NCBI GenBank assembly: GCA_951406725.2
Contig: OX597819.1
Location: 122,946,001-123,010,000, forward strand
Direction: 5' to 3'
Source: Octopus vulgaris
Taxonomy: Eukaryota
DNA length: 64,000 nt
Positions 6,829-60,667 of the stretch are shown piece by piece (position 1 is the stretch's first letter; each line of letters opens with the position of its first letter). The notes beneath the pieces were generated by a model. The model was not told the DNA's origin and did not search any database. It was given only the letters and a program-made list of their open reading frames with translations. The position numbers and the translations under genes are program-made.

Positions 6829-6908
6829 AACTAAGCAGAGCCGGTCGTGCTTTGAATTAAGGAAGTGAAAGTTTCAATTCTTATATATCTATACTAAACT
6901 GTTCCTCA

Positions 6909-7132
6909 TTTACTCTTTTACTCTTTTACTTGTTTCAGTCATTTGACTGCGGCCATGCTGGAGCACCGCCTTTAGTCGAACAAATCGACCCCGGGACTCA
7001 TTCTTTGTAAGCCCAGTACTTATTCTATCGGACTCTTTTTGCCGAACCGCTAAGTGACGGGGACGTAAACACACCAGCATCGGTTGTCAAGCAATGCTAG
7101 GGGGACAAACACAGACACACAAACACACACAT

Positions 7133-7195
<63 letters not shown>

Positions 7196-7363
7196 TATAC
7201 GACAGGCTTCTTTCAGTTTCCGTCTACCAAATCCACTCACAAGGCATTGGTCGGCCCGGGGCTATAGCAGAAGACACTTGCCCAAGGTGCCACGCAGTGG
7301 GACTGAACCCGGAACCATGAGGTTGGTTAGCAAATTACTTACCACACAGCCACTCCTGCGCCT
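6909..7363 (-). mobile_element. SINE family A, full length
   Basis: Near-identical to the copies at 51374-51840 and 60224-60647. Confidence 0.92.
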
Positions 7364-9245: not shown

Positions 9246-9438
9246 AATTATGAGTATAATTATAATTAGGTTTCAGCAAAAAATTTTCTTCACCACATAC
9301 CGAAATTTAGAAATAGCAGTTAAAACTAACTATTTCACTACCGTAAGAAATAGTTAGTCTTAACAGGTATTTATAAATTTCGGTATGTGGTGAAGCAAAT
9401 TTTTTTGCTGAAACCTAATTATAATTATACTCATAATT
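9246..9438. repeat. Long inverted repeat (about 91-bp arms, 10-nt loop)
   Basis: 9246-9336 is the near-exact reverse complement of 9347-9438. Confidence 0.9.
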
Positions 9439-11945
9439 ATATAATTTCTCTCCCAGGAATGACAAGATGTGAACGAGGACAGGCGAGGTCCCTCCTGAAC
9501 CTCATCAACACCCTGTACATGGAGCAAGTAATACTCCAACCAACCAGAGCAGGTAACACACTGGATCTCTGCTTCACAAATAATATGGATCTCATCCATA
9601 ATGTGAAAGTGACACCGACACTACTCTCGGATCACAACACGGTAGAGCTGACCATGTACGGGCCAAAAGAGAGCACGGACATGCAGCCTACAAGAAACCC
9701 TCATAATCTTTCCAGCTTGAACTTCCATAAGGCAAACTGGAAACAAATTGAGAAAGAGATCCTCAAACAAAACTGGCCTGAATGTCTCTCCTCGCCGGAC
9801 ATCGACATGACACTTCAACAATTCATGTCTGTAATGCAAGCCATATGCTACAAATGTGTCCCAGAGAGAAAGGCCACTGTACACAAGAACAAAATCCCTA
9901 GAGAGAGGAAAAAAAAAAAAATTTTAATGAGACGGCGTACAAAAATTTCAAATCGCCTAAACAAACAAATTGAAAGCAGTGAAAAGTCCCGCCTGAAAAT
10001 AAAACTGTTAGAAATTGAAAATTGTCTGCAACTCTCCAATGAGAAGGAGAGAGCAGACAAAGAAGCCTGGGCTATAGACAACATAAAAACTAACCCCAGA
10101 GCTTTCTACAGGTATGCCAAAGAAACAGCTACGGTGCACTGTAGGATAGGGCCACTCCTTGAAAAGGATGGCACACTCACAGGAAAACCAATGAGGGTAA
10201 GTGAAATACTGAATGAACAATTCAAGAGTGATTTCACCCCACCCCTTGGGCATTTCCAAATCAGCAATCCAACTGACTTCTTTACCACTGCAGATATAGA
10301 ATCAGAGGCGGCGACGATAAATTACATCGATATAAAGGAAGACGATGTAATAAAGGCTATAGATGAAATGAAAACAGACTCAGCTATTGGCCCCGATGGA
10401 TTCCCGGCAATCCTCCTAAAAGTATGTAAGAGAGTCCTAGCAAGACCACTGCAGTTCCTCTTTCAGAGCTTCCTTGCAGCTGGCAAACTTCCAAGAAAAC
10501 TGAAGGAAGGTAAAATATGCCCTATTCATAAAGGAGGTAGCAGAGCGGAGGCCAAGAACTACAGACCTATCTCTCTGACCTCACACATCAGCAAGGTCAT
10601 GGAACGAATAGTTAGAAGGAAACTAATCACCTTCCTTGAAGAAAATGACTTGCTGCCTGACACCCAACATGGTTTCCGACCAGGAAGAAGCTGCTTAACT
10701 CAGCTCCTGCAGCACTATGACTGGGTGCTGAAACAACTGCTCAACCACTCAAATGTGGAAGTCATATATCTCGACTTCGCAAAGGCCTTCGATAAAGTCG
10801 ATCATGGAATGATATGTCACAAACTGCGTGATCTTGGCATAATTGGAAAACTAGGAGAATGGCTTCATGACTTTCTAAAGAATAGAAGTCAGGTGGTAGC
10901 AGCCAATGGGGCCACTTCCATTAGCACGCAAATTGTGAGCGGTGTTCCACAGGGCACTGTTTTGGGACCACTACTGTTCATAATGACCCTCTCAGACATG
11001 CCCTCAGCCACGCGGAGAGCCACGATCACAAGTTATGCAGATGATACAAAAGTTTCACAGGCAATACAGAACCCTGAAGACACTAAGCACCTGCAATGTG
11101 AGCTGGACGAAATATACAAGTGGGCTGAAAAGAATAGCATGCAGTTCAATGCTGAAAAGTTTCAAGCTTTATACTATCAGCATGCAAAACTGAATGCAAT
11201 ACCCAATGAATACACTGGACCCGGAGGGATTGCAATCCCAGAGGCACAATCAGTGCGTGACCTGGGTATTCACATGAGTGATGACGCGACCTTTCATGTA
11301 CATGTTGCTAAACTGACAATGAAATGCAGACGGCTGGCTGGATGGATTCTTAGAACCTTTAGAACAAGAGAACAAGAAACCATGATGGTCCTCTGGAAGA
11401 CACTTGTCCTAAGCCACTTTGACTATTGCTCTCAGCTATGGTCACCATCCAGTGTCAAGTTGATCACAGAACTTGAGGCGATCCAACGAAGCTACACGAA
11501 GAAGATAGCCTCTGTGCAGCATACGAGCTACTGGGAGAGACTCAAGAGATTAAAGCTCTATTCCCTGGAGCGTAGGCGAGAAAGATATGCCATAATATAT
11601 ATCTGGAAGATCCTGGAAGGTCTTGTCCCAGACTTTGGCATCGAGAGTCACACAAACGCCAGAACCGGACGCCACTGCGTAGTACCAAGGACTCCAAATT
11701 TGCCATCAAGGTGTAGGACAAGATATTGTGATAGCCTGGGCTTCAGAGGCCCACGGCTCTTCAATGTCCTCCCGAAGAACCTGAGGGACCTGCATGGTGT
11801 AGATGCGGATGTCTTTAAAGTAGGACTGGATCTCTTCCTGTCAGGTGTCCCGGATGAACCAACTTCACGGCAGGAGGTGCAGATGAGGGCAGCTGCATCG
11901 AACTCTCTCATGCATCAGATGGCGTTTGCTAAAAAGCATCCGTGA
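9387..11945 (+). CDS. LINE ORF2 fragment: C-terminus of APE endonuclease plus reverse transcriptase
   Basis: APE end motifs PTRAGNTLDL and SDHN. RT motifs NYRPISLTS, QHGFRPGRSC, YLDFAKAFD, GVPQGTVLGP and YADD. The first ~20 codons derive from the flanking palindrome, so this is not a native start. Confidence 0.9.
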   Translation: MVKQIFLLKPNYNYTHNYIISLPGMTRCERGQARSLLNLINTLYMEQVILQPTRAGNTLDLCFTNNMDLIHNVKVTPTLLSDHNTVELTMYGPKESTDMQPTRNPHNLSSLNFHKANWKQIEKEILKQNWPECLSSPDIDMTLQQFMSVMQAICYKCVPERKATVHKNKIPRERKKKKILMRRRTKISNRLNKQIESSEKSRLKIKLLEIENCLQLSNEKERADKEAWAIDNIKTNPRAFYRYAKETATVHCRIGPLLEKDGTLTGKPMRVSEILNEQFKSDFTPPLGHFQISNPTDFFTTADIESEAATINYIDIKEDDVIKAIDEMKTDSAIGPDGFPAILLKVCKRVLARPLQFLFQSFLAAGKLPRKLKEGKICPIHKGGSRAEAKNYRPISLTSHISKVMERIVRRKLITFLEENDLLPDTQHGFRPGRSCLTQLLQHYDWVLKQLLNHSNVEVIYLDFAKAFDKVDHGMICHKLRDLGIIGKLGEWLHDFLKNRSQVVAANGATSISTQIVSGVPQGTVLGPLLFIMTLSDMPSATRRATITSYADDTKVSQAIQNPEDTKHLQCELDEIYKWAEKNSMQFNAEKFQALYYQHAKLNAIPNEYTGPGGIAIPEAQSVRDLGIHMSDDATFHVHVAKLTMKCRRLAGWILRTFRTREQETMMVLWKTLVLSHFDYCSQLWSPSSVKLITELEAIQRSYTKKIASVQHTSYWERLKRLKLYSLERRRERYAIIYIWKILEGLVPDFGIESHTNARTGRHCVVPRTPNLPSRCRTRYCDSLGFRGPRLFNVLPKNLRDLHGVDADVFKVGLDLFLSGVPDEPTSRQEVQMRAAASNSLMHQMAFAKKHP

Positions 11946-15300: not shown

Positions 15301-15683
15301 TGGAGGCGCAATAGCCCAGTAGTTAGAGCAGCGGACTCGCGGTCATAGGATTGCGGTTTCGATTCCCAGACCGGGCGTTGTGAGTGTTTATTGAGCGAAA
15401 ACACATAAAGCTCCACGAGGCTCCGGCAGGGGATGGTGGTGATCCCTGCTGTACTCTTTCACCACAACTTTCTCTCACTCTTACTTCTTGTTTCTGTTGT
15501 GCCTGCATTTCAAAGGGCCGGCCTTGTCACATCCTGTGTCACGCTGAATATCCCCGAGAACTACGTTAAGGGTACACGTGTCTGTGGAGTGCTCAGCCAC
15601 TTACACGTTAATTTCACGAGCAGTCTGTTCCGTTGATTCGGATCAACCGGAACCCTCGTCGTCGTAACCGACGGAGTGCTTCC
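15301..15683 (+). mobile_element. SINE family C, tail type 1
   Basis: tRNA-like head GGAGGCGCAATAGCCCAG...GGTTTCGATTCCC. Tail ends CTCGTCGTCGTAACCGACGGAGTGC. Confidence 0.88.
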
Positions 15684-16285
15684 TGCCTGATGTTCGACTT
15701 TTCCAGAATGTCTTGAGAATGAACCAATACATTATTTTCTTATTCTTTTTATTTTGTTCTCTCAGTTTTCTGAACATTTTTATCAACGTACCCAGCCTTT
15801 ACCTTTTGACCACGTTCATGTTGAGGTAACCGGAAATTTTTTGTAATTTTTATGTAACAGAGCGAAAGACTGTGAGAAACAACTTGAAGTTCTTTTAGTA
15901 TATTTTCTGAACTCATCTTCACTTTTCAACCTCATTAGACTTTTACGCTACATAATTTTTAAAGAGATTACCGTTCTTAAAACAGCAACAGATTATGTTT
16001 TCTAGTATTTTCTTCGTATTTAGTGAGATTATTTTCGATTTGGTATACCTTAATGATCCAATTTTCTGTAAGTTTGACACGTTCGGATAAAGATTTCTTC
16101 TCTTCGTTCTGAAGACAAGAATAATTTTTGAGAACTTACTTCTTCGATGGAAACATGCCAACAGGAATGGATAAACATAGTAATGCAAAAATTTCTTCCA
16201 GATTTTGTTATTGTAGTACTTTGCTCGTGTTTACAGAACTTTCAATGTTTTATTAACTAAATTATATTTTTAAAATATTATATAT

Positions 16286-16811
16286 AGGCGCACGAGTGGC
16301 TGTGTGGTAAGTAGCTTGCTAACCAGCCACATGGTTCCGGGTTCAGTCCCACTGCGTGGCATCTTGGGCAAGTGTCTTCTGCTATAGCCCCGGGCCGACC
16401 AATGCCTTGTGAGTGGATTTGGTAGACGGAAACTGAAAAAAGCCTGTCGTATATATGTATATATATATAAATGTGTGTGTATATGTTTGTGTGTCTGTGT
16501 TTGTCCCCCTAGCATTGCTTGACAACCGATGATGGTATGTTTACGTCACCGTCACTTAGCGGTTCGGCAAAAAGAGACGGATAGAATAAGTACTGGGCTT
16601 ACAAAGAATAAGTCCTGGGGTCTATTTGCTCGACTAAAGGCGGTACTCCAGTATGGCCGCAGATCAAATGATTATGAAACAATTAGAGTAAAAGAGTAAA
16701 GAGATTTAGTATAGTATAACTGAAAGAAGCCCGTCGTACATATTTATATATGATATGATGTGTGTGAGTGGATTTGTGTATACCGTACATATATATATAT
16801 ATGTGTGTGTG

Positions 16812-18345: not shown

Positions 18346-21300
18346 CCGTATTTCCCGGCGTCGAAGGCGCTTCTTCCTTGAGGACACGCCCTAATTTTGA
18401 CAAGCAAAACACTGGAAAAAAAAAATAACAAACATAAAATACGATCCTGACACTTCGAGTCTTGTTACCTTTAGAGATGCAATCAAAAAAATATCAACGT
18501 ACGCCACTTAAAATGTCCCTAGCATTTATTTTGGCTGTTTGTCTAATACTTATTTGTGCTTATCCCTTACGTTAACTAAACTTGACTGCCTCCCGTTGTG
18601 ACCCCACACTCGAGTCTGTAAAACTGAGAAAAGACTGCATTCACCTACCTTAGCAATTTGTTTTGTGGGACCGTTAGTACATGGTAGGGTATGTTTATGC
18701 CTACCGTTATGTACCCACTGTAATACTGAAATTATACTACGACAGTGTTGTATGCAGATGGGGTGGATAGGAAGATGCACCCCATACCCCCCAAAACTTC
18801 TCAAATGTGACTGTTTTGTTTAAATATTTATGATAGAAAGCATATTTTTGTACCAGAGCAAGCAACTATTGTAAGGTTCAGTATAGAAATTGATTTTGCA
18901 GTATCTCTGAACATATTACCCTGTCATTTCATTGATCAGTTGCAAAGAATCGAACCTCAGATTTCTGGATCCACTCCTGCACTATCATGCTCCAGTTCGA
19001 CTATTCACTGTTCGGCTCAGCAGTCATTTTTATCCTCATGTGCTTCATCAGGAGGGTTCTTGGCCAATAAAGTCTCAGTTCAAGCAAGTGGATGGGGTTA
19101 CCACTGTCGCAGTATTTTAAGATTTTGGTAGAAATAGATGAGAATTATACAGTACTTTTTGGTCCCAGACAAAGAAAAAAACTAAACTCCACAATAAGAA
19201 AATTACTGTGAGAAATACGGAATAACATTTTATTGTACAGTTACACTTTGTAAAAATATCACATGAACATGACATCCTAAATAGAACAAAATGAAAATAA
19301 AATAAAAATTACAGTAAAATCTACATAATAAGAAAACATTTCAATCATAAAATACTGGAAATGTGTTGCTTATTGCTACCATTTATAGAAGTAAGACACA
19401 AACATGAAATTCCAAATAGAACAAAATAAATACAGAACCGAAATTAAAAGCTGCAGTTGAAATATTACAAATAAGAAAACATATTTAATTTTCAAATCTT
19501 GAAAATATTTTACGTAATTACCATTTGTAAAAATTGCACACAGACATGGAAAAACAAGCGCTACAATTAAATTACGATGGAAAAAGATTAAAAAGTGTGC
19601 AAATGTTAAATGTACGAATATAAAGAAAATATTTCACTCTTCAAATGCTGAAAACTGACTGCAGTCATTCATATTCCCACAACCAGAAAAATCACCACGG
19701 TTGTCAATACTGTCCGAAGTGTCACTATCATCAAACAGAATGTCACCTTCTGTGCCATCTAATGCCACATCTTATAAAATATTTTGCTATTACTTCAATT
19801 TTCACAGCATTCCATGATCTCAGAACTCACTCGCAAACCTGAGCAATTGTTGACCTTTTCAAACGACCCGTTGGTATTAGGTCATGGTCCGTTGGCTCTC
19901 ATCCACTGATTCCACTCTTCTTTCTTAAATGCCTTAAAAGGTCTGTTGATTGATACGTCCAGTGGTTGTAGTTGGGTAGTTAAACCACCAAGGATCACTG
20001 CCATTTACGTTTTCAATTTCTGCACCCTTTCTTCAATAGCCTTTGTTTTGTGGGCACAAAACTGGTAGTTTTTAAGGAGGCCACCGGAACGCCTCGTACA
20101 GACCGTATCTAGCCATAACTTCACTCCCTCTTCATTCATCCACTCCTCTTGGGAAACGTGAATATAAATTCCACGTTGAATTTTATCGTTTGGTTAAGTT
20201 TTCCTCTTGAAAATAAGCAGCGGTGGCAGTATTGTTCCATCACCACAACATAATAATACTGCAGTATAAAGGGTTTTCTCATGCCCAGATGTCTTTACAA
20301 TTACGGTTGTGGAACCACTAACACCTACTGTTCTATTTGATACCACATCAAACATTAGTGGCAACTCATCCGTGTTTCTGATCTGACCCAGATCGTAGTC
20401 AATCTTTTTTCTTGCACTGACTATGAACCTGTGAAATTCGATTGTTTTGTTCTCATAATCTTCAGGCATTTTTGTGCTATTCTTGTGTTCATTCTCATTG
20501 CTAGTCTGTGCCTCTTCATAAATCTGTAACACCAGCTTGATGTACCACGAAAATCATCCATATCTCGTGCTGCTGTCCTCACTTTTGATTCATTAATAAT
20601 CCTTTTTATTGATACTGCCAAACCCGACCTACACTCCGCAGCTATCCACTCCTTCATCTGTTGCTGTAGTTCCGGCCACTTAGCTGCTGTCTTGATGCAG
20701 GCTTCAACAGGTTCTCTTGTTTCTTCCAGTGGCAGATCATTTTCTCAGTTGGCGGTGCTCCAAAATGCCTCTCCGCAGCCATGTTATCATACTGTTTGGC
20801 GTATTCAATCACTTGTAGCTTGTAGCCGATTGTGTAAGAGTATCTTCTGCTTGAGGTTGCCATAATAACGGTTGCGCTAAAAATTCAAATTCTTCTGAAG
20901 TTTCTGATCACTTCTAAGGTCAGCAGATCCCGGTTTGAACTGGTTAAGACCATGGCTTTCAGAGATCAAGAAGGAAGCTTATGTTGCTCTCTGAACACAA
21001 CACGTTTCATAACAGATAGTAAGTGATTACGACACTATTGTTATTAATATTTGCTTGCAAACCCTTTTGACATACCGTAGTTTTACTTCTTTCGTCACTT
21101 AATAATGTTCTCTTAAAGTCAGGTTGTATGAAGAACTTGACAAAACCGGCAATTTAGATACACATGTATATCACTCGTCAGCTACCTCGTCTAACACACA
21201 CTGCCCATATGTGACTGAATTTTTGTGATAACGCATATTTAAAAAAAGATTATGGCCTTTTTTTTATTTACAACTTTAACAAAGAATAATTTATGAACTT

Positions 21301-22075: not shown

Positions 22076-22301
22076 GGCGGCGAGTTGGTATAAATGTTAG
22101 CACGCCGGGCGAAATGCTTAGCCGTATTTCGTCTGTCATTACGTTCTGAGTTCAAATTTCGCTGAGGTCGACTTTGCCTTTCATCCTTTCGGGGTCGATA
22201 AAGTAAGTACCAGTTACGCACTGGAGTCGATGTAATCGACTTAAATCCCTTTGTCTCTCCTTGTTTCCCCCTCTGTGTTTAGCCCCTTGTGTGTAGTAAA
22301 G

Positions 22302-22306
<5 letters not shown>
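22073..22306 (+). mobile_element. SINE family B
   Basis: Head AAGGCGGCGAGTTGG, B-box-like GAGTTCAAATT and body GAGGTCGACTTTGCCTTTCATCCTTTCGGGGTCGATAAA. Confidence 0.88.
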
Positions 22307-22389
<83 letters not shown>

Positions 22390-28250: not shown

Positions 28251-30741
28251 ACATACATACATACATACATACATACATACATACATACATACATACATAC
28301 ATACATACATACATACGTACATACATACGTACGTACATACATACATACATACATACATACATACATACATACATGCATACGTACATACATACATACATAC
28401 ATACATACGTACATACATACGTACGTACATACATACATACATACATACATACATACATACATACATACATACGTACATACATACGTACGTACATACGTAC
28501 ATACATACATACATACATACATACATACATACATACATACATACATACGTACATACATACGTACGTACATACATACATACATACATACATACATACATAC
28601 GTACATACATACGTACGTACATACATACATACATACATACATACATACATACATACATACATACATACATACGTACATACATACATACATACATACATAC
28701 ATACGTACATACATACGTACGTACATACATACATACATACATTCATACATACATACATACATACATACATACATACATACATACATACATACATACATAC
28801 ATACATACATACATACATACATACGTACATACATACATACGTACGTACATACATACATACATACATACATACATACATACATACATACATACATACATAC
28901 ATACATACATACGTACGTACATACATACATACATACATACATACATACATACATACATACATGCATACGTACATACATACGTACGTACATACATACATAC
29001 ATACATACATACATACATACATACATACATACATACATACATACATACATACATACATACATACATACATACATACGTACATACATACATACATACATAC
29101 ATACATACATGCATACGTACATACATACATACATACATACATACATACATACATACATACATACATACATACATACATACATACATACATACATACATAC
29201 ATACGTACGTGCATACATACATACATACATACATACATACATGCATACGTACATACATACATACGTACGTACATACAAACATACATACATACATACATAC
29301 GTACATACGTACGTACGTACATACATACATACATACATACATACATCCATCCATCCATACATACATACATACATACATACATACGTATGTACGTACGTAC
29401 GTACGTACATACATACATACATACATACATACACATATACATACATACGTACATACGTACATACATACATACATACATACATTCATACATACATAGATAC
29501 ATACATACATACATACATACATACACATATACATACATACGTACATACATACATACATACATACATGCATACATACATACATACATACATACGTACGTAC
29601 ATACATACATACATACATACATACATACATACATACATACATACATACATACATACATTCATTCATACATACATACATACATACATACATACATACATAC
29701 ATACATACATACATACATACATACATACATACATACATACATACATACATACATACATACATACATACATACATACATTCATTCATACATACATACATAC
29801 ATACATACATACATACATACATACGTACATACATACATACATTCATACATACATACATACATACATACATACATACATACATACGTACATACATACATAC
29901 ATACATACATACATACATACATACATACATACGTACATACATACATACGTACGTACATACATACATACATACATACATACATACATACATACATACATAC
30001 ATACATACATACGTACATACATACATATATACATACATACATACATGCATACGTACATACATACGTACGTACATACATACATACATACATACATACATAC
30101 ATACATACATACATACATACATACATACATACATACATACATACATACATACATACATACATACATACATACATACATACATACATACATACATACATGC
30201 ATACGTACATACATACATACGTACGTACATACATACATACATACATACATACATACATACATTCATACATACATACATACATACATACATACATACATAC
30301 ATACGTACGTACATACATACATACATACATACATACATGCATACGTACATACATACATACGTACGTACATACATACATACATACATACATACATACATAC
30401 ATACATACGTACATACGTACGTACGTACATACATACATACATACATACATACATCCATCCATACATACATACATACATACATACATACATACATACATAC
30501 ATACGTACGTACGTACGTACGTACGTACGTACATACATACATACATACATACACATATACATACATACGTACATACGTACATACATACATACATACATAC
30601 ATTCATACATACATAGATACATACATACATACATACATACATACATACACATATACATACATACGTACATACATACATACATACATACATACATACATAC
30701 ATACATACATACATACATACGTACGTACATACATACATACA

Positions 30742-30775
<34 letters not shown>

Positions 30776-30781
30776 CGTACA

Positions 30782-30815
<34 letters not shown>

Positions 30816-30941
30816 CGTACATACATACATACATACATACATACATACACATATACATACATACATACATACATACATACATACATACGTACGTACATAC
30901 ATACATACATACATACATACATACATACATACATACATACA

Positions 30942-30977
<36 letters not shown>

Positions 30978-30978
30978 T
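28251..30978. repeat. 2.7-kb (CATA)n array with variant units and higher-order structure
   Basis: CATA with interspersed CGTA, CATT, CATG and CATC variants. Confidence 0.97.
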
Positions 30979-31399
30979 ACCACGGTTTTCTTTCTGTTTC
31001 TGTCAGCCAAATCCACTCACAAGGCTTTGGTCGGACCGCCGATATTTGCACCTTAGCACTTATTCTATTGTTTTTTTTGCCGAACCGCTAAGTTACGGGG
31101 ACGGAAACACACCAGCATCTGTTGACAAGCAATGGGGGTGCACAAACACAAGCACACAAGTACATACATACATACATACATACATACATACATACATACA
31201 TACAGTTTCTGTCAGCCAAATCCACTCACATGGCTTTGGTCGGACCGCCGATATTTGCACATTAGCACTACCTTGAGGTACCCATGCAATATAAATTAAC
31301 GTTTGATTATTTTTTAAGTGTCTTTAGAAATTAATCCATATTATGATATATTCTATGCTTTTACTCATACAAATTTGTGACAGTTATACAAATTGTACA

Positions 31400-32430
31400 A
31401 CGCCCATTCACTGCAAACTGACGATATTTGCACGTTAGCACTGGGCTGCATTTTCACCTACAAATGCAACTGTCACTACTCTTAACTACGACTTACTCAG
31501 TAAGCTGCCTTTTCAAGAATGTTGTTGCAGCTGTTGCTGTTGAGCGAAGCGGTCTTCGTCCCAGACCTTGCAAGATCGTGCCTCTGTAGTGGGAGAAGTC
31601 CGAAACGTGGTCCTTTGCTATTCGTAAGACCCGCAGAAGAGAAAGCAGGTCAACCCCCGACACCGAGAGTATCGACGGCGGATGGATGAATGCACATCCA
31701 GGCTCAGTGGTTGCGTAGGAAGTCGGGGACAAGAAACAGGAAGAAAGAGTGAGAGAAGGTTTGAGCGAAAGAGTACAACAAGGGTCTCCACCACCCCCTG
31801 CCGGAGCCTCGTGGAGCTTTAGGTGTTTTCGCTCAATAAACACACACAAGACCCGGCCTGGGAAGCGAAACCGCGAGTCCGCTGCCCTAACCATTGGGCC
31901 ATTGCGCCTCCACTGTGTTGCAGCTCATTTGACACCGTTATCGTCCTCAATCTGATTACATACTTTCCAACAGAATTTTTCAACTCTCAAAATCCTCCAG
32001 GACACCCTCCCCATGAACTTCACTTAAAAATCGATTGCCCTGTCATCCTCCTACGCAACCTAAACACACCCACACTATGCAATGGAACTCGCCTTGTGTT
32101 CAAACAAATGATGAACCATGTCACTGAAGTCTAAATTATCACGTTCACGGCAAAAACGACACCGTTTTTATTCTGGAAATTCCGCTAACCACAACAGACT
32201 GCCCCTACCGAATGCAAAGACTTCAGTTCCCTCTCAAACTCAGCTTCACCATGATAAGTTTCAAACACAAGGTCAGTCGCTAAAAATTGTCCGATTAGAC
32301 CTTAGAACGTCGTGCCTTTCACATGAACAGTTCTACATCGGTTGTTTCAGAGTTGGCCATTCAGACACCTTATTCCTCTATACACCTGAAGGAAGAACTA
32401 AAATGTCGTCTGCAAAGAAGCCCTACTGCC
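31400..32430 (+). pseudogene. Helitron PIF1-like helicase C-terminal remnant, split by a SINE
   Basis: SPTNATVTTLN..LLSKLP, FPTEFFNS..PPGHPPHELHLK..CPVILLRNLN...LCNGTRL, RLQFPLKLSF, QGQSLK.V.LDL...C.SHEQFY. Confidence 0.88.
31533..31915 (-). mobile_element. SINE family C, tail type 2
   Basis: Same head/body as 15301. Apparent 10-bp TSD TGTTGCAGCT (31523-31532 and 31916-31925). Confidence 0.88.
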
Positions 32431-37484: not shown

Positions 37485-38070
37485 TAAGGCAACGAGCTGG
37501 TAGAATCGTTAACACGCCGAGTGTAATGCTTAGCGGCATTTTGTCCGTTTCTATACAAGGGTCACTTAACAGCATGAACAAGCACCAAAACTTAAAAGGC
37601 CTTTTCAGATTTAGAGGAACTCAAATTTCAGGAATTTTAGAGCTAAAAGGGTCCAATAAATCAAAAGGCGCTCGATAATTATTAAAATTTCTATTAGATT
37701 AAAATATTTTAACAAAAATAAAATTACAAATAATCTATTTGATTGCTGCAATTCTAATTTCCAATTTTTAACTCCAAGCAATAGTTAAACAGATCGCTAG
37801 GCCATGGTCCATATTGGCCTATATAGAAATCCGGATCTGTCGCTACCTCTGAGATAAATACTTCGGAATACTCATAAAGAAATATTGCTTAGATCGCTAA
37901 CTGTCCTTCATCATCAGTAAATTCTAAATCCAAATTCCCACCGTGGTTTACTTTGCCTTTCATCATTTTGAGTTCAATTAAACAAGTACCAGGTGAGTAT
38001 TCGGATCGATATAATCCACCAGCCCGCTACCCGAAATTGCTGGCTTTGTGCCTCAATTTGAAACCAATAT
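37485..38070 (+). mobile_element. SINE family B copy interrupted by a 365-bp insertion
   Basis: Head at 37485-37551. The body resumes at about 37920. Confidence 0.75.
37554..37919. repeat. Unclassified dispersed repeat, copy 1
   Basis: Highly similar to 44150-44497. Confidence 0.85.
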
Positions 38071-38142
38071 AACATATACCTATATTCCTTTACAAAAAAA
38101 TACAGGTATCTAGAGCTAATTACCAAAATAAAGGCTCAGGAA

Positions 38143-38548
38143 GAGCTCAGAAATGGCTGTGTGGTAATTAGCTTGCTTACCAACAACATGGTTCCGGGTT
38201 CAGTACCACTGCGTGGCACCTTAGGCAAGTGTCTTTTAATATAGCCTCGGATTTACCAAAGCCTTGTGAGTGGATTTGGTAATCGGAAACTGAAAGAAGC
38301 CCGTCGTATATATGTATATGTATATATATGTATGTGTGTTTGTGTGTCTGTGTTTGTCCTCCCAACATCGCTTGACAACCGATGCTGGTGTGTTTACATC
38401 CCCGAAACTTAGCGGTTCTGCAAAAGAGACTGATAGAGTAATTAATAGGCTTACAAAGAATAAGTCCTGGGGTCGATTTGCTCGACGAAAGGTGGTGCTC
38501 CAGCATGGCTGCAGTCAAATGACTGAAACAAGTAAAAGAGTAAAAGAG
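38143..38548 (+). mobile_element. SINE family A
   Basis: Full-length copy with GAGTAAAA tail. Confidence 0.9.
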
Positions 38549-38936
38549 AAACCTATATATAAATACGGCTACGCATTTCCCCCGGCGTGCTAACGTTTCT
38601 GCCAGCTCGCCGCCTGCAGTTGCAGTATAATAAATATTATCAAATGCATATACCAATGTATAACCTATGTATATTTTCCGGTGGCTGCAACGGCGTAGCT
38701 GTGTGTATAACTCTCAAGCTGCCGAGAGACGGTTGAATCGTCAGGTTCTTGCGGTTCCAATCATAAAATGATACGTTGAATTTCTGCACTCTATCCTTAA
38801 GCAAGACACTTAATTTCATGTCGTTCCAATCACATAAGCTTCAAATGAGCAAACTTGCGACGGACTAGGGTCCTGCTTGCGAGAAATACTGTTATCACGA
38901 TCACTTATACTCCATGGAAACTAAAATTCTTAGGGT

Positions 38937-43551: not shown

Positions 43552-43905
43552 CATTATTATTATTATTATTTTGGCTGCCCCGTCGTTATCGAGTATGGCC
43601 ATTGCACGAAGCTGAACTGTTATTGATGATGTGATCGAATGTGACTTTTTAGCCCAGCTAAAGATCTACAATGTCTTGTACAGAATTAGCAACTAAAACC
43701 TTTACCGGTAATAGCCGGCTGTAGTTGTAACTGGGCTTCATGTACCTTTGCATGTCGTTTAAGTCCTCCTGCCGAATTACACTCTCTTCCACACGCCCGA
43801 CAGATATGATTAGTATGGTGTGTTACACCACCACCAGTGGCCAGGTTGTCACTCATCCGTCTCGCTCTATGACTACGAAGATGACTCTTGAGTCCAGCTT
43901 TACTG
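43518..43905 (-). mobile_element. RTE-type LINE 3' end with tandem C2H2 zinc fingers
   Basis: SKAGLKSHLRSH...CRACGRECNSAGGLKRHAKVH...C*FCTRHCRSLAGLKSHIRSH-stop, a short 3' UTR ending TCGATAACGACGGGGCAGCC and an (AAT)n tail. Confidence 0.75.
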
Positions 43906-44149
43906 ATATATACATATATGTAAGTGTGTGTGTGTGTTGATACCAATTTTGTATTTTCCATAAATTTAAAGGCCGCCAGCACTTTGATAGTTTCAAACAA
44001 GCATTTGCTTTGTTAATTTTTATAATGGATTGCTCTTGACTGCCTTTAACTTATATCAGAAGAAAACATTCTCAAAGTAATTTGTAAAAGAGACTTCTTA
44101 AGGACAAATGCAAACCATTATAGGATAATTAAGAGCGACTCATTAAATT

Positions 44150-44497
44150 AAGGGCCACTTAACAGCTTGAAGAAGCACCAAAAGTTAAAAGGCCTCTTCA
44201 GATTGAGAGTAACTCAAATTTCAGGAATTTTAGCGCTAAAAGGTTCCTATAAATCAAAAGGCGCTCGATAATTATTAAAATTTCTGTTAGATGAGAAATA
44301 TTTTAACAAGTATAAAATTTCAAATAATCTATTTGATTGCTGCAATTCTAATTTCCGATTTTTAACTCCAGATCGCTAGGCCATGGTGGATATTGGCCCA
44401 TATATGAATCCCGATCTGTCGCTATCTCTTAGATAAATACTTCGGATTACTCATAAAGAAATATTGCTTAGATCGCTAACTGTTCTTCATCATCAGT
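44150..44497. repeat. Unclassified dispersed repeat, copy 2
   Basis: Highly similar to 37554-37919. Confidence 0.85.
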
Positions 44498-45173
44498 TAA
44501 TTTTTTAGAAACAGGAATACTTTTCGGACATCAGTATCGTTTAGAAAATACTATAGAAATACTGAAGAAAACTGATAGCGAAAGTTGGTACTTTTAGCAC
44601 TATAATGAAAAGAATATTGTGATACTACGACAAAAACGCTATGAAACATCGTCAAACATCTTCCAACTACACAATCAACGAATGGCATTGGAATGCTTTT
44701 ATTATCTTCTTATTGATCTCGTCAGCATTATTGTGAGTTGCAGCCATAATATTTTGATAGAATATAACACCAGCAGCGATAGTGGTGTATTTAAAACGCT
44801 CATCTTTATTCAATTTCACAGATTTTATTGACAGGAATTTTTGATATGATGCTGTCAGGTTATCATATCAGCTGCAACAAAATAATGCAAAAAATTAAAT
44901 TTTTAGACTTTTTGAATAAGAATTTTTGTGCAGATTTCTCGTTTCGCATGTGCGTTTGAATCCAAAATTTCAATGTTGCAACCTAATATATTAATAGAAT
45001 CCCACACACACACATGAACACACACACAGATACACACACACGCACGCACGCACATGCATGCATCTTCCTCCTTGTGAGAGAAAATCTAATAACTGAAAGT
45101 AAAGGAAAAACGTGTAAGCCTACCTTTCCTGCTATGTGTTTGTGTGAATATAAGTATGTGTGTTAGTGTGTAC

Positions 45174-45830: not shown

Positions 45831-45929
<99 letters not shown>

Positions 45930-46000
45930 TATAGCCTTGCAACCAAAGCCTTGTGAGTGGATTTGGTAGGCGAACTGAAAGCCTGTCGTATATATGTATG

Positions 46001-46031
<31 letters not shown>

Positions 46032-46238
46032 TTGTGTGTCTGTGTTTCTCCCCTAGCATTGCTTGACAACCGATGCTGGTGTGTTTACGTCCCGTAATTT
46101 AGATGTTCGAAAGAGACCGATAGAATAAGTACAGGCTACAAAGAATAAGTCCCGGGGTCTATTTGCTCGACTAAAGGCGGTGCTAGCATGGCCGCAGTCA
46201 AATGACTGAAACAAGTAAAAGAGTAAAAGAGTAAAGAG

Positions 46239-46240
<2 letters not shown>
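45930..46240 (+). mobile_element. SINE family A, 5'-truncated
   Basis: Family A body and tail. Confidence 0.88.
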
Positions 46241-46282
<42 letters not shown>

Positions 46283-46515: not shown

Positions 46516-46961
46516 GTATATATAATTAAGAGATAGAACCTCCATAAAGTAATTCAAGTAATACTGAAAGATATTACATAAATTTAAATATATTATTATT
46601 AACGTTGTACTAAAAATTTCTACACATTAAAACGACTTTATTATTAATATCGTGCTAAAAAATTTATATACTACATAATATACATGAAAAATACACATTA
46701 AAAAACGACAACGCGCGTTTTGTGACTATGTATACGAATCTACAATATCAAAATCGGGGATCAAAAAGTAATATTTCTTTGATCCAAAATTATAAGATAA
46801 TTTACAACATGGATGAAGACGTTATAATTAAGGTCTCAAAATTATAAGATAAATTTACAATATGGATGAAGACGTTATAATTACACTATACTTTATAAAT
46901 AATTGATAAGATTTAACAATATTAAAGAAAAGTATGAGCATGACTTATCTTTTTGATGAGC

Positions 46962-46986
<25 letters not shown>

Positions 46987-46992
<6 letters not shown>

Positions 46993-47257
46993 GGACATTA
47001 CTACACGTAAATGCCTTACGCTATAAGGGACTCCTAAAGTCAAATCTACCTTAATAAATATACAGTGTACTGACAGTGAGGGAATGCAACTTGGAAGTCG
47101 TCTCTACAAGCCGCAAATCATATGATTTCATAGTTAGTGTACATAATCCACTTTCTAATCGTCAGTGCAGGCATGTTGCAGTCCCTCACAGTCGACAATT
47201 TTGACTTTAAGAGTCCCTTAAAGCGCGACGCATTTATGTGCAGTAGGACACTTAATA
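46987..47257. repeat. Imperfect palindromic element next to (TA)n
   Basis: TAAGGGACTCCTAAAGTCAAA / TTTGACTTTAAGAGTCCCTTA and GTGAGGGAATGCAAC / GTTGCAGTCCCTCAC arms. Confidence 0.85.
47111..47170 (-). ncRNA. Type I hammerhead ribozyme, complete core
   Basis: CTGCA-CTGACGA-TTAGAAAGTG-GATTATGTA-CACTAACTAT-GAAA-TC-ATAT-GA-TT-TGCGG. Stem I has 5 bp, stem III is palindromic (ATCATATGAT), the triplet is AUU, and the first stem II pair is a U-U mismatch. Confidence 0.75.
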
Positions 47258-47399
47258 TAATAAATGTATTTAAAAGGGAATAAATTAATTATATATTTTG
47301 TGTAAAGTTTTCCCGTAACTGGTTTTTCACGCTACTTGATAAATTCTTATAAAGATTTTTTCCTTATATTTAATTTATACATACACCATACAAACATAC

Positions 47400-47496
<97 letters not shown>

Positions 47497-47553
47497 TAGA
47501 GATAGATAGATAGTCATGTCAAATATATATATAAATATGTCAATATGTATGTA

Positions 47554-48787
47554 TCAGGTCGAAATGCTCGATTTTCATATGCACAGTCTTATCCTGACAA
47601 TTCTTTGTTTTACAACGTTGACGAGTTACATTATCACTTTTCGAAATGCAATTCATTGTGTCTCCTTATATTGGGAGTTTCCTCTTGTAAATCAATTTTT
47701 GTGAACCCATGGATAGATCGAAATCGTGTAGTTTATGAGTGTGAGTTCCGTTGTGGGACCAGTGCATCCCAGACAGTTCGAAACATCATTGTTGTGTTTA
47801 GCAAAGATGTAGCGAATGAACGCACTGTAGGTTGATGGTTTGAGAAATTCCGGTCTGGTGACTTTACTCTTGAAAAATCAACCCCATGGTAGACCTGAGA
47901 CCAAGGTGGATAAAGATGAGCTGGAAACTGTAGTGGGATCTCAAACTACGCGTGAGATAGCAGCAAGGTTTGATGTTTCGATGTCAACTATATTGAACCA
48001 TCTGAAACAAATCGGCAAGGTACTGAAGCTGGACAAATGAGTACCACACGAATTGAACGAGCATCAACTGACACGTCGTCTTGAAACTTACTGTTCTTTG
48101 CTGTCACGGCATAAATGCGAACCCTTTTTGCATCACGTTGCGTGTGATGAAAAATGGATTCTCTTCAACAATATCAAGCGTTCTGCACGGTGGATTGATA
48201 GAGACGAAGTGCCAAAACACAACCCAAAAATCAATATTCACCAGAAAAAGCAAATGGTGTCTATTTAATGGTCCAGCGTTGGTGTCATCTATTACACCTT
48301 CATGACACCTGGCAAGTCAATTACAGCAGATGTATTAACCAACTGGATGAAATGATGAGTGAATTTGCAATTAAACAACCAGGATTGGTCAGTAAAGACA
48401 GACTAATTCTGTTGCAGGACTATGCTCGACCCCATGTTGCATAAAGAATGCTACTCAAGTTACAGGAACTGAACTTGGAATTACTCTGTCATTCATCATA
48501 TTCACCAGACCATGCACCAAATGACTATCACGTTTCCCAGGAATTAGACTACGTTTTACAAGGAGAAAACTTCAAGTTTCATGAAGATGCACAAACAGCC
48601 TTTCATGATTTCATCACCTCTTGCTCTTTAGAATTCTTCGCTGCCGGAATAAATATGCTACCGATAAAATGGCAAAATTGTGTTGATAATTTCTGTGCAT
48701 ACATTGATTAACTGCATCACTTTTTGTTCAGATAAAATAAAATAAACTTTCAGTTCAAAATCGGACATTTCATTCTTAATGAACTCA
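47554..48787 (+). mobile_element. mariner DNA transposon, decayed
   Basis: Right TIR AAATCGGACATTTCATTCTTAATGAACTCA followed by TA. The left TIR is partly deleted. Confidence 0.88.
47709..48711 (+). pseudogene. mariner (DD34D-type) transposase, stops and frameshifts
   Basis: WFEKFRSGD, *VPHEL, CDEKWI, LLQDYARPH, HSSYSPDHAPNDYH, KWQNCV. Confidence 0.93.
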
Positions 48788-51373: not shown

Positions 51374-51597
51374 TTTACTCTCTTTTACTCTTTTACTCTT
51401 TTACTTGTTTCAGTCATTTTGACTGCGGCCATGCTGGAGCACCGCCTTTAGTCGAGCAAATCGACCCCGGAACTTATTCTTTGTAAGCCCAGTACTTATT
51501 CTATCGGTCTCTTTTGCCGAACCGCTAAGTGACGGGGACGTAAACACACCAGCATCGGTTGTCAAGCAATGCTAGGGGGACAAACACAGACACACAA

Positions 51598-51674
<77 letters not shown>

Positions 51675-51840
51675 TACGACGGGCTTCTTTCAGTTTCCGT
51701 CTACCAAATCCACTCACAAGGCATTGGTCGGCCCGGGGCTATAGCAGAAGACACTTGCCCAAGATGCCACGCAGTGGGACTGAACCCGGAACCATGTGGT
51801 TGGTTAGCAAGCTACTTACCACACAGCTACTCCTGCGCCT
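51374..51840 (-). mobile_element. SINE family A, full length, young
   Basis: Near-identical to 6909-7363. Confidence 0.92.
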
Positions 51841-52264
51841 ATAAATATTAGCAGATTAAATTTTAACACTTTTTCTTCTATACAGCAAATAAAACATTTA
51901 TAAATATTTAAAACGCGAAGAAACGTTCAGAAACGTCTCAATATATCCTATACCGAAAAACTGAAACGATAATTGATTGTCAAATTTATTCAGCGAAATA
52001 TTGAATATTTTTCTATGCAGACTTCTTAGGATCTCGCTTTGACCGATTTTACTGATCTTTGAACTGGTAGGCTATGTCACTGACAATTAAATCAATATTA
52101 TTGATCTTTGAACAGATACACGGTTTTATTGATCTCTGATATGAGTATTCGAACGTTCGACTTCACCGAAATTTGAACGTCATGATTCGAGCTGGAAAAT
52201 CATAAGTTCGGTTTGGTTATTTTTCGGAAGGCATGTCGTATTTAAATATTCACGTTTGAACATG

Positions 52265-60075: not shown

Positions 60076-60223
60076 AATTACCGAAGTTATTCTGGTTGCT
60101 TATTTTGATTATATATATATATATATATGAGTTTAGTAAAATTTTGATTCAGTTGAATAAGCAACAAAGATATGCAGAGTTGATGCAAGAGGTAATGCAG
60201 AGGTAATATATATATATATATAT

Positions 60224-60442
60224 ACTCTTTTACTCTTTTACTTGTTTCAGTCATTTGACTGCGGCCATGCTGGAGCACCGCCTTTAGTCGAGCAACTCGA
60301 CCCCGGGACTTATTCTTTGTATGCCCAGTACTTATTCTATCGGTCTCTTTTGCCGAACCGCTAAGTGACGGGGACATAATCACACCAGCATCGGTTGTCA
60401 AGCAATGCTAGGGGGACAAACACAGACACACAAACATACACG

Positions 60443-60476
<34 letters not shown>

Positions 60477-60647
60477 CATATATACGACGGCTTCTTTCAG
60501 TTTCCGTCTACCAAATCCACTCACAAGGCTTTGGTCGGCCCGAGGCTATAGTGGAAGACATTTGCCCAAGATGCCACGCAGTGGGACTGAACCCGGAACC
60601 ATGTGGTTGATAAGCCAGCTACTTACCACACAGCCACTCCTGCGCCT
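60224..60647 (-). mobile_element. SINE family A, full length
   Basis: Near-consensus copy. Confidence 0.92.
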
Positions 60648-60667
60648 TCATATATATATATATATAT

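Follow-up and report, generated by a model that had tools for sequence, protein, structure and literature searches.

A 245-bp fold-back insert with a hammerhead motif in Octopus vulgaris is probably a Penelope-like element end joined to a shorter inverted copy

Results

Main finding and feature map

The window (the whole 64,000-nucleotide stretch of Octopus vulgaris DNA that was analyzed, from contig OX597819.1) contains a fold-back insert of 245 bp, the minus strand of which carries a complete type I hammerhead motif. The insert is best explained as a 5'-truncated end of a Penelope-like element (PLE) with a shorter inverted copy of itself, probably inert, a reading to which we assign a probability of ∼0.6. 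The remnant would consist of the PLE 3' end (pLTR region, ∼170-200 nt) with its hammerhead, placed head-to-head with the shorter inverted copy. The features concerned are as follows, with window positions.

46962..46989, no strand: (AT)14 microsatellite, toward which the 3' end of the ribozyme-sense strand points
46984..46991, plus: TA-rich left flank ending in TATATTA, which mirrors the right flank 47253-47260; putative nick site
46992..46999, plus: left candidate TSD, 8 bp (AGGACATT), 7/8 match with the right copy
47000..47244, minus: proposed insertion, 245 bp, from the boundary scan and GC content; sense strand set by the ribozyme
46999..47044, minus: left outer arm, at the 3' end of the sense strand, 39/46 against 47200-47245
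47045..47071, minus: 27-nt spacer, missing from the opposite arm (6 nt there), with a TATA-like run at 47063-47056 of putative promoter role
47072..47093, minus: left inner arm, 19/22 against 47172-47193, mismatches all transversions
47111..47170, minus: type I hammerhead of PLE type, from the descriptor and by-eye table comparison, predicted cut 47116/47115
47117..47126, no strand: perfect palindrome of stem III, nested in a 14-nt palindrome (47115-47128)
47172..47193, minus: right inner arm, starting at most 2 nt from stem I; native stem I extension or part of the inverted copy
47200..47245, plus: right outer arm, proposed by analogy to be an inverted, 5'-truncated copy of the element 3' end
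47245..47252, plus: right candidate TSD, 8 bp (AGGACACT), from the boundary scan

The hammerhead motif

The conserved hammerhead blocks CUGANGA, GAAA, and UH are present unaltered and in order on the minus strand, as CUGACGA at 47165-47159, GAAA at 47129-47126, and U at position 17 (47116), and three helices, of which helix I is open, surround the core. Stem I pairs 47170-47166 with 47115-47111 (5 bp, including one G.U). Above a basal U.U, stem II has 3 bp, then a 2x2 loop, then 4 bp closed by a loop of 9 nt, whereas stem III (ATCATATGAT at 47126-47117) has 3 bp and a tetraloop. These findings confirm a sequence-only reading of this DNA, which had proposed a complete minus-strand hammerhead (placed by us at 47170-47111), and the cut that it predicted at 47116/47115 agrees with the location of U17. 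Its description of stem III as a perfect palindrome also stands, but the full palindrome is longer, spanning the 14 nt mentioned above. As judged by eye, the motif displays the traits of PLE hammerheads, i.e. an extra base after A9, a long helix II, a 4-5-bp helix I, and a palindromic helix III. The G10.1-C11.1 pair of the general PLE consensus is not present, its place being taken by U.U.

Among the 31 CTGANGA sites on both strands of the window, this is the only one that matches our hammerhead descriptor. Block-shuffled windows contained a match with a stem I of at least 4 bp in 11/1259 cases and of at least 5 bp in 5/1259, none of the 1259 combined a stem I of at least 5 bp with a palindrome of at least 8 nt, and shuffles of the element itself gave descriptor matches in 4 and 1 of 164080; because the descriptor was composed post hoc, after the motif had been seen, these rates lean low. 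Rfam hammerhead models, which may not cover PLE variants, gave no match in the whole window at the gathering score or in 46800-47450 at E≤10. A plus-strand ribozyme, as in viroid-like RNAs, was not found by the descriptor. When GTDB was scanned for the core pattern, 24 prokaryotic loci were recovered, in none of which stem I reached 4 bp, as compared with 5 bp here. A Bdellovibrionales locus with the core pattern (L022:201-260) has a 3-bp stem I, a 5-bp stem II, and C17, and may be a bacterial hammerhead or a chance occurrence.

The arms and the predicted rod

The sequence-only reading had described imperfect inverted arms around the hammerhead and a transcript folding as a ribozyme-capped rod, both of which our analysis supports. 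The arms are bipartite, with 39/46 positions matched in the outer pair and 19/22 in the inner pair, the two pairs being separated by unequal spacers of 27 nt (left arm) and 6 nt (right arm). As assessed by folding of 46987-47257, the minus-strand RNA forms a rod with a minimum free energy (MFE) of -103.6 kcal/mol (z -8.34), a stability equaled by 0/200 shuffles, and the plus-strand RNA has an MFE of -99.2 kcal/mol (z -8.25), which was likewise equaled by 0/200. The longest unbroken helix of the rod is 21 bp. A closed 253-nt form of the element folds as an unbranched rod of -94.5 to -96.9 kcal/mol. The only perfect palindromes in the 245-bp insert are 6, 6, and 14 nt long.

The 10 mismatches in the 68 arm pairs comprise three G.U on the minus strand, two G.U on the plus strand, and five transversions. 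An RNA rod under selection is expected to favor G.U on its own strand. The lack of a G.U strand bias, although based on small numbers, together with an arm mismatch of ∼15% (dispersed repeats of the window diverge by 10.5%), suits an inverted duplication made at the DNA level that later decayed. All three mismatches of the inner arms are transversions (p ∼0.06, given a transition share of 61% in the window), as would suit a designed RNA helix. Because of this, and because its right half starts at most 2 nt from stem I, we suspect that stem I natively extends into the inner arm, in which case the junction with the inverted copy would lie near 47200.

Boundaries of the insertion

A scan for symmetric boundaries returned, as its longest match, the 8-bp direct repeat (7/8) flanking 47000-47244, which is expected by chance at ∼0.6% over five boundaries. 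GC content is 41% in 47000-47244, as compared with 23% in each flank. Alternative boundaries also fit, namely TTAA at 46993/47251 (a 4/4 pair) and a 6-bp repeat at 46999/47245. Beyond the 8-bp repeats, the flanks are symmetrically TA-rich, with TATATTA on both strands, which explains the outer 7-bp pairing behind the limits of 46987-47257 given in the sequence-only reading. The outermost 13 nt at either end of that interval are probably target DNA and not part of the element. The fold-back described in that reading is therefore retained, but its extent of ∼270 bp is not, 47000-47244 being a better description of the unit. On the left, (AT)14 stops 10 nt before the insert, and the right flank is merely TA-rich; the distance from the cut site to the insert end facing (AT)14 is 116 nt. 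Two further repeats were observed nearby. GGACAT occurs a third time at 47400-47405, bordering (AT)45, and with this copy 46999-47399 could be a larger insert that has a perfect duplication of 6 bp. A tandem duplication of ∼52 bp (1.9 copies, 46785-46883) lies ∼115 nt to the left of the element.

Search for copies and coding capacity

The element occurs once in the 64-kb window, where its arms match only each other and where neither a tandem unit nor a second ribozyme was found. The label "retrozyme-like" used in the sequence-only reading is therefore not upheld within the window, which holds one ribozyme, one copy, and none of the tandem organization that defines retrozymes. No PLE reverse transcriptase (RT) or GIY-YIG domain was detected in 260 of the 269 reading segments, the other nine overlapping a LINE ORF. 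Because both a PLE ORF and a tandem arrangement are missing from the window, the insert is classified neither with the autonomous or Hydra-clade PLEs nor with the retrozymes.

A 45-nt match at 22291-22335 was considered as another copy and rejected as a microsatellite. Against collections of phages and plasmids, blastn with the element gave no match at E≤1. Translations of non-coding frames were used as copy proxies: one had no match at E≤10, and a second had four weak matches, which are repeat translations and not copies, but because such proxies are insensitive, blank protein-proxy searches say little. Three of the four weak matches resemble CRISPR arrays.

Comparison with Penelope-like elements

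Published ribozymes were compared and counted by eye, from tables extracted as text. In the table for Hydra-clade PLE (25 families after omission of one duplicate inverted row; PMC8557442), U.U at the base of stem II occurs in 14/25 motifs, a U cut site in 10/25, and both in 8/25. Stem III comprises 3-4 pairs, with C15.2-G16.2, in every one of the 25, and only one has a perfect 10-nt palindrome. The octopus motif shares with this clade (Craig et al. 2021, PMC8557442) the layout CUGANGA-U...U-GAAA with opposed U.U, U17, and a 3-4-pair stem III. As in Hydra elements, which are stated to prefer (TA)n, the ribozyme lies within ∼120 nt of a (TA)n-facing 3' end; we counted ∼36-116 nt from cut site to 3' end in six novel Hydra consensuses (PMC8557442). 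The clade occurs in Octopus, one element being known from Octopus bimaculoides, and one family is reported to bear an inverted 5'-truncated copy, as proposed here (PMC8557442). Unlike the tabulated Hydra-clade motifs, ours has U15.2-A16.2 (0/25 there) and an interrupted stem II, and the insert has no ORF. Its sequence also differs from that of the ribozyme of O. bimaculoides Hydra-1 (Hydra-1_Obim). When six element probes of 10-12 nt were compared with the consensus file of Craig et al., they gave 0, 0, 0, 0, 1, and 3 matches, and those displayed are chance-like. By eye, minus-strand 47009-47019 and 47053-47063 have exact 11-nt matches downstream of the Hydra-2_Ajap and Hydra-1_Crog ribozymes, which are AT-rich and may be due to chance.

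The traits stated for PLE hammerheads in the sources consulted are a long helix II, a 4-5-bp helix I, and a palindromic helix III. In the wider table of metazoan PLE-type motifs (Cervera and de la Pena 2014, PMC4209133), U17 is found in 24/56, including all three mollusc rows, and U.U in 2/56. The Drosophila willistoni row combines U.U, an A-U 16.2/15.2 pair, and a perfect palindrome, and the octopus motif resembles this variant in having an extra U after A9 opposite a U, a long helix II, a 5-bp helix I, and a perfectly palindromic helix III with U15.2-A16.2 (PMC4209133). It departs from the metazoan PLE hammerheads of that paper in the absent G10.1-C11.1 and in the enclosing rod, which the accessible text does not describe. 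Considering that U.U is present in only 2/56 motifs of this table, and also in an axolotl retrozyme, it is not diagnostic of PLE. The possibility that U.U and U17 represent decay was rejected, as both are frequent in natural PLE motifs.

In Adineta vaga, Penelope inserts are reported to have inverted pLTRs of ∼180-220 bp, mostly head-to-head, with 8-10-bp duplications, and solo pLTRs occur (Arkhipova et al. 2013, PMC3846280). The octopus insert is similar in its proposed head-to-head ends and shorter inverted copy, in the length of its candidate TSD (8-10 bp there), and in a putative pLTR of ∼200 bp containing a TATA-like run. However, A. vaga inserts mostly retain an ORF or cargo between the ends, whereas the present insert measures 245 bp as a whole, and their junctions often have an 18-38-bp palindrome, whereas perfect palindromes here reach 14 nt at most (PMC3846280, as far as accessible). 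By analogy with these inserts, a head-to-head PLE end with a short inverted copy is an arrangement of an already described type. The term "pLTR-derived" applied in the sequence-only reading is supported, in that the ribozyme architecture, its location close to a (TA)n-facing end, the head-to-head arms, and the 8-bp repeat all agree with published PLE features.

Predicted folding, cleavage, and dimers

The active hammerhead fold is predicted to lie 3.7 kcal/mol above the MFE, with an ensemble share of ∼6e-4, as bases of the core are recruited into pairing by the 14-nt palindrome. Nearest-neighbor models leave out the tertiary contacts of the hammerhead core. We rejected U17 alone as the cause of the inactive fold, since a C at this position leaves a gap of 3.6 kcal/mol, and an A one of 2.5. 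For the isolated motif, a double hammerhead (-25.8 kcal/mol) is more stable than two active monomers (-15.6 kcal/mol) or two monomer MFE folds (-23.0 kcal/mol). The suggestion of the sequence-only reading that a palindromic stem III allows dimeric cleavage is thus sound for the isolated motif, but less so for the motif within the rod. The double hammerhead needs a swap of stem I between two molecules, but this stem is held within one molecule by a rod of ∼68 bp, and the rod should therefore hinder dimer formation. A single ribozyme gives a single cut, so no circle would arise from this copy.

A minus-strand read-through transcript would then form a rod, cleave slowly if at all, and yield a nicked hairpin and not a circle; it might serve as a substrate for dsRNA enzymes. 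In the accounts available to us, PLE hammerheads are reported to cleave poorly in vitro, one of nine Xenopus retrozyme dimers was cleaved (10.64898/2026.07.22.740005), and the monomer of an axolotl retrozyme with U.U at stem II cleaves 22% in an hour (PMC7229834).

Discussion

If the insert is a PLE remnant, its structure can be accounted for by a short series of events. A GIY-YIG endonuclease would have nicked both strands of a TA-rich target in the same context, TATTA/A, 8 nt apart. Reverse transcription would then have copied the 3' end through the uncleaved ribozyme and halted early, after which self-priming or a second priming event would have produced the short inverted copy, the asymmetry of 27 versus 6 nt probably marking the junction. 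Repair would have left the 8-bp duplication, and the arms would have drifted to ∼15% mismatch. A further interpretation, which we put forward as a minor possibility, is that the fold-back belongs to a family of dispersed copies that share fixed ends, each a rod capped by a ribozyme and bearing a PLE 3' end on both strands, or is the genomic print of a rod-shaped circle of ∼253 nt.

Other origins have to be weighed against a truncated PLE end with a shorter inverted copy. We regard it as doubtful that the insert is one monomer, circularly permuted, of a non-LTR retrozyme (∼253 nt, rod-shaped) with master tandem copies elsewhere, in which the 6-8-nt direct repeat would be a terminal redundancy and the arms the RNA rod. 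The resemblance to animal non-LTR retrozymes (Cervera and de la Pena 2020, PMC7229834; Li et al. 2026, 10.64898/2026.07.22.740005) extends to a type I hammerhead, unit size, GC below 50%, high self-pairing, and a proposed pLTR origin. Indeed, 47000-47244 has the size of a monomer (245 bp), a GC content (41%), and a self-pairing within the published range (170-400 nt, <50% GC), its rod begins directly at stem I, which it closes, and the closed 253-nt form is unbranched. U.U at stem II is found in axolotl HHR_Amex2 (PMC7229834), and solo monomers are described as common and retrozymes as pLTR-derived (10.64898/2026.07.22.740005). However, non-LTR retrozymes are defined in these sources as units repeated in tandem that carry two or more ribozymes, whereas the window holds one ribozyme, no tandem unit, and near-perfect inverted arms. 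Moreover, the canonical 6-bp stem I and 4-bp stem II are missing, the G.U strand bias is absent, a 21-bp helix is unbroken, and a spacing of 245 bp between the repeats with symmetric ends at the rod tip would be rare under random permutation. It is distinctly unlikely, in our estimate, that the insert is instead a MITE of a DNA transposon, with long terminal inverted repeats enclosing a captured PLE hammerhead and either an 8-bp duplication of the hAT/P/Mutator kind or a TTAA of the piggyBac/Kolobok kind. The size, long inverted ends, symmetric boundaries, 7/8 match of the 8-bp repeat, alternative TTAA pair (4/4), and DNA-like mismatch pattern would all be expected of such an element, and the unequal spacers between outer and inner repeats resemble piggyBac ends. 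To our knowledge, however, the termini ACTRCAC are unlike those of hAT, P, piggyBac, and Kolobok, and if TTAA is taken as the boundary, agreement over the six terminal bases is only 1/6. A MITE would also require a separate capture event, whereas PLEs generate the arrangement themselves, and no hammerhead-bearing inverted-repeat element is described in the literature searched, as far as accessible.

That the hammerhead is a chance look-alike, formed on an AT-rich palindrome in a decayed inverted-repeat element, would agree with the missing Rfam match, the active fold 3.7 kcal/mol above the MFE (share ∼6e-4), and the post hoc tuning of the descriptor in a setting where many windows were scanned. 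We consider it highly improbable, because only 0.4-0.9% of shuffled windows and 1-4/164080 shuffled elements match, 0/24 prokaryotic loci with the core letters reach a 4-bp stem I (5 bp here), and the odd features of the motif are those of natural PLE motifs in the published tables. The folding energies carry the textbook limitation already stated for nearest-neighbor models. A hairpin RNA retained by the host (an siRNA precursor or editing substrate, the loop of which is opened by the ribozyme) is suggested by the long imperfect duplex with spaced single mismatches and by a TATA-like run near 47293-47287, which on the minus strand is ∼30 nt upstream. This, too, has very little probability in our view, since the surroundings, in which no host exon was detected, are made up of microsatellites and decayed transposons, the pairing lacks strand bias, TATA-like runs are common at 23% GC, and no pol III A or B box was found.

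In the accessible text of PMC4209133, metazoan PLE hammerheads are mostly dispersed single copies from truncated PLEs, and under the best reading the octopus motif is one of many such dispersed animal PLE hammerheads, hence of little importance alone. Its value lies in a compact record of PLE integration, with TATTA/A on both strands, 8 nt apart, from which the nick geometry of a GIY-YIG endonuclease that targets (TA)n can be predicted; according to the sources consulted, the cycle by which PLEs transpose has yet to be worked out. The element also hints at an octopod PLE family distinct from Hydra-1_Obim. Were it a member of a dispersed fixed-end family, it could be remobilized from the transcript of either strand, and if the family or the circle is real, cephalopods would harbor a MITE-like or viroid-like PLE parasite. 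Copies sharing fixed ends, or a ∼253-nt circle, would mean that pLTRs, retrozymes, and fold-back elements are connected through a single small RNA. In the literature searched, which was mostly open-access, we found no description of a cephalopod MITE-like or viroid-like PLE parasite, nor of an octopod retrozyme or a lone hammerhead in a short fold-back element.

Other features of the window

The window is rich in repeats, with 109 tandem-repeat rows, many dispersed repeats, and pieces of decayed DNA transposons. A LINE-type ORF on the plus strand (9387-11945; open stretch 9354-11942) encodes a partial endonuclease and an RT (852 aa from 9387). The best named relative of its protein is from the octopod Argonauta hians (56% identity), and another relative is 88% identical. 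A decayed mariner transposase (47506-48700, plus; HTH_48 and Transposase_1) starts just to the right of (AT)45, and a frame-broken transposase remnant at 20424-20884 on the minus strand matches HTH_Tnp_Tc5 and BrkDBD. A fragment of a Pif1 helicase 2B domain at 31823-32131 (plus) is, we assume, Helitron-derived. For the C2H2 zinc-finger segment at 43689-44012 (minus), a host gene was considered, but the segment is probably the C terminus of an RTE-type LINE. The (ACAT)n array at 28251-30980 (2.7 kb, 682 copies) gives rise to many spurious long ORFs. A dispersed SINE-like family of ∼450 bp, with copies ∼79-95% identical, is found at 608-1047, 6905-7363, 16261-16713, and 38140-38565, with further copies at 45928-46255, 51380-51848, and 60206-60660. 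The SINE-like repeats of the window have an octopod-like appearance. A second dispersed family has a tRNA-like head near 15301, 17719, and 48814, and an unclassified AT-rich 368-bp duplicate (88% identical) occupies 37557-37923 and 44150-44502.
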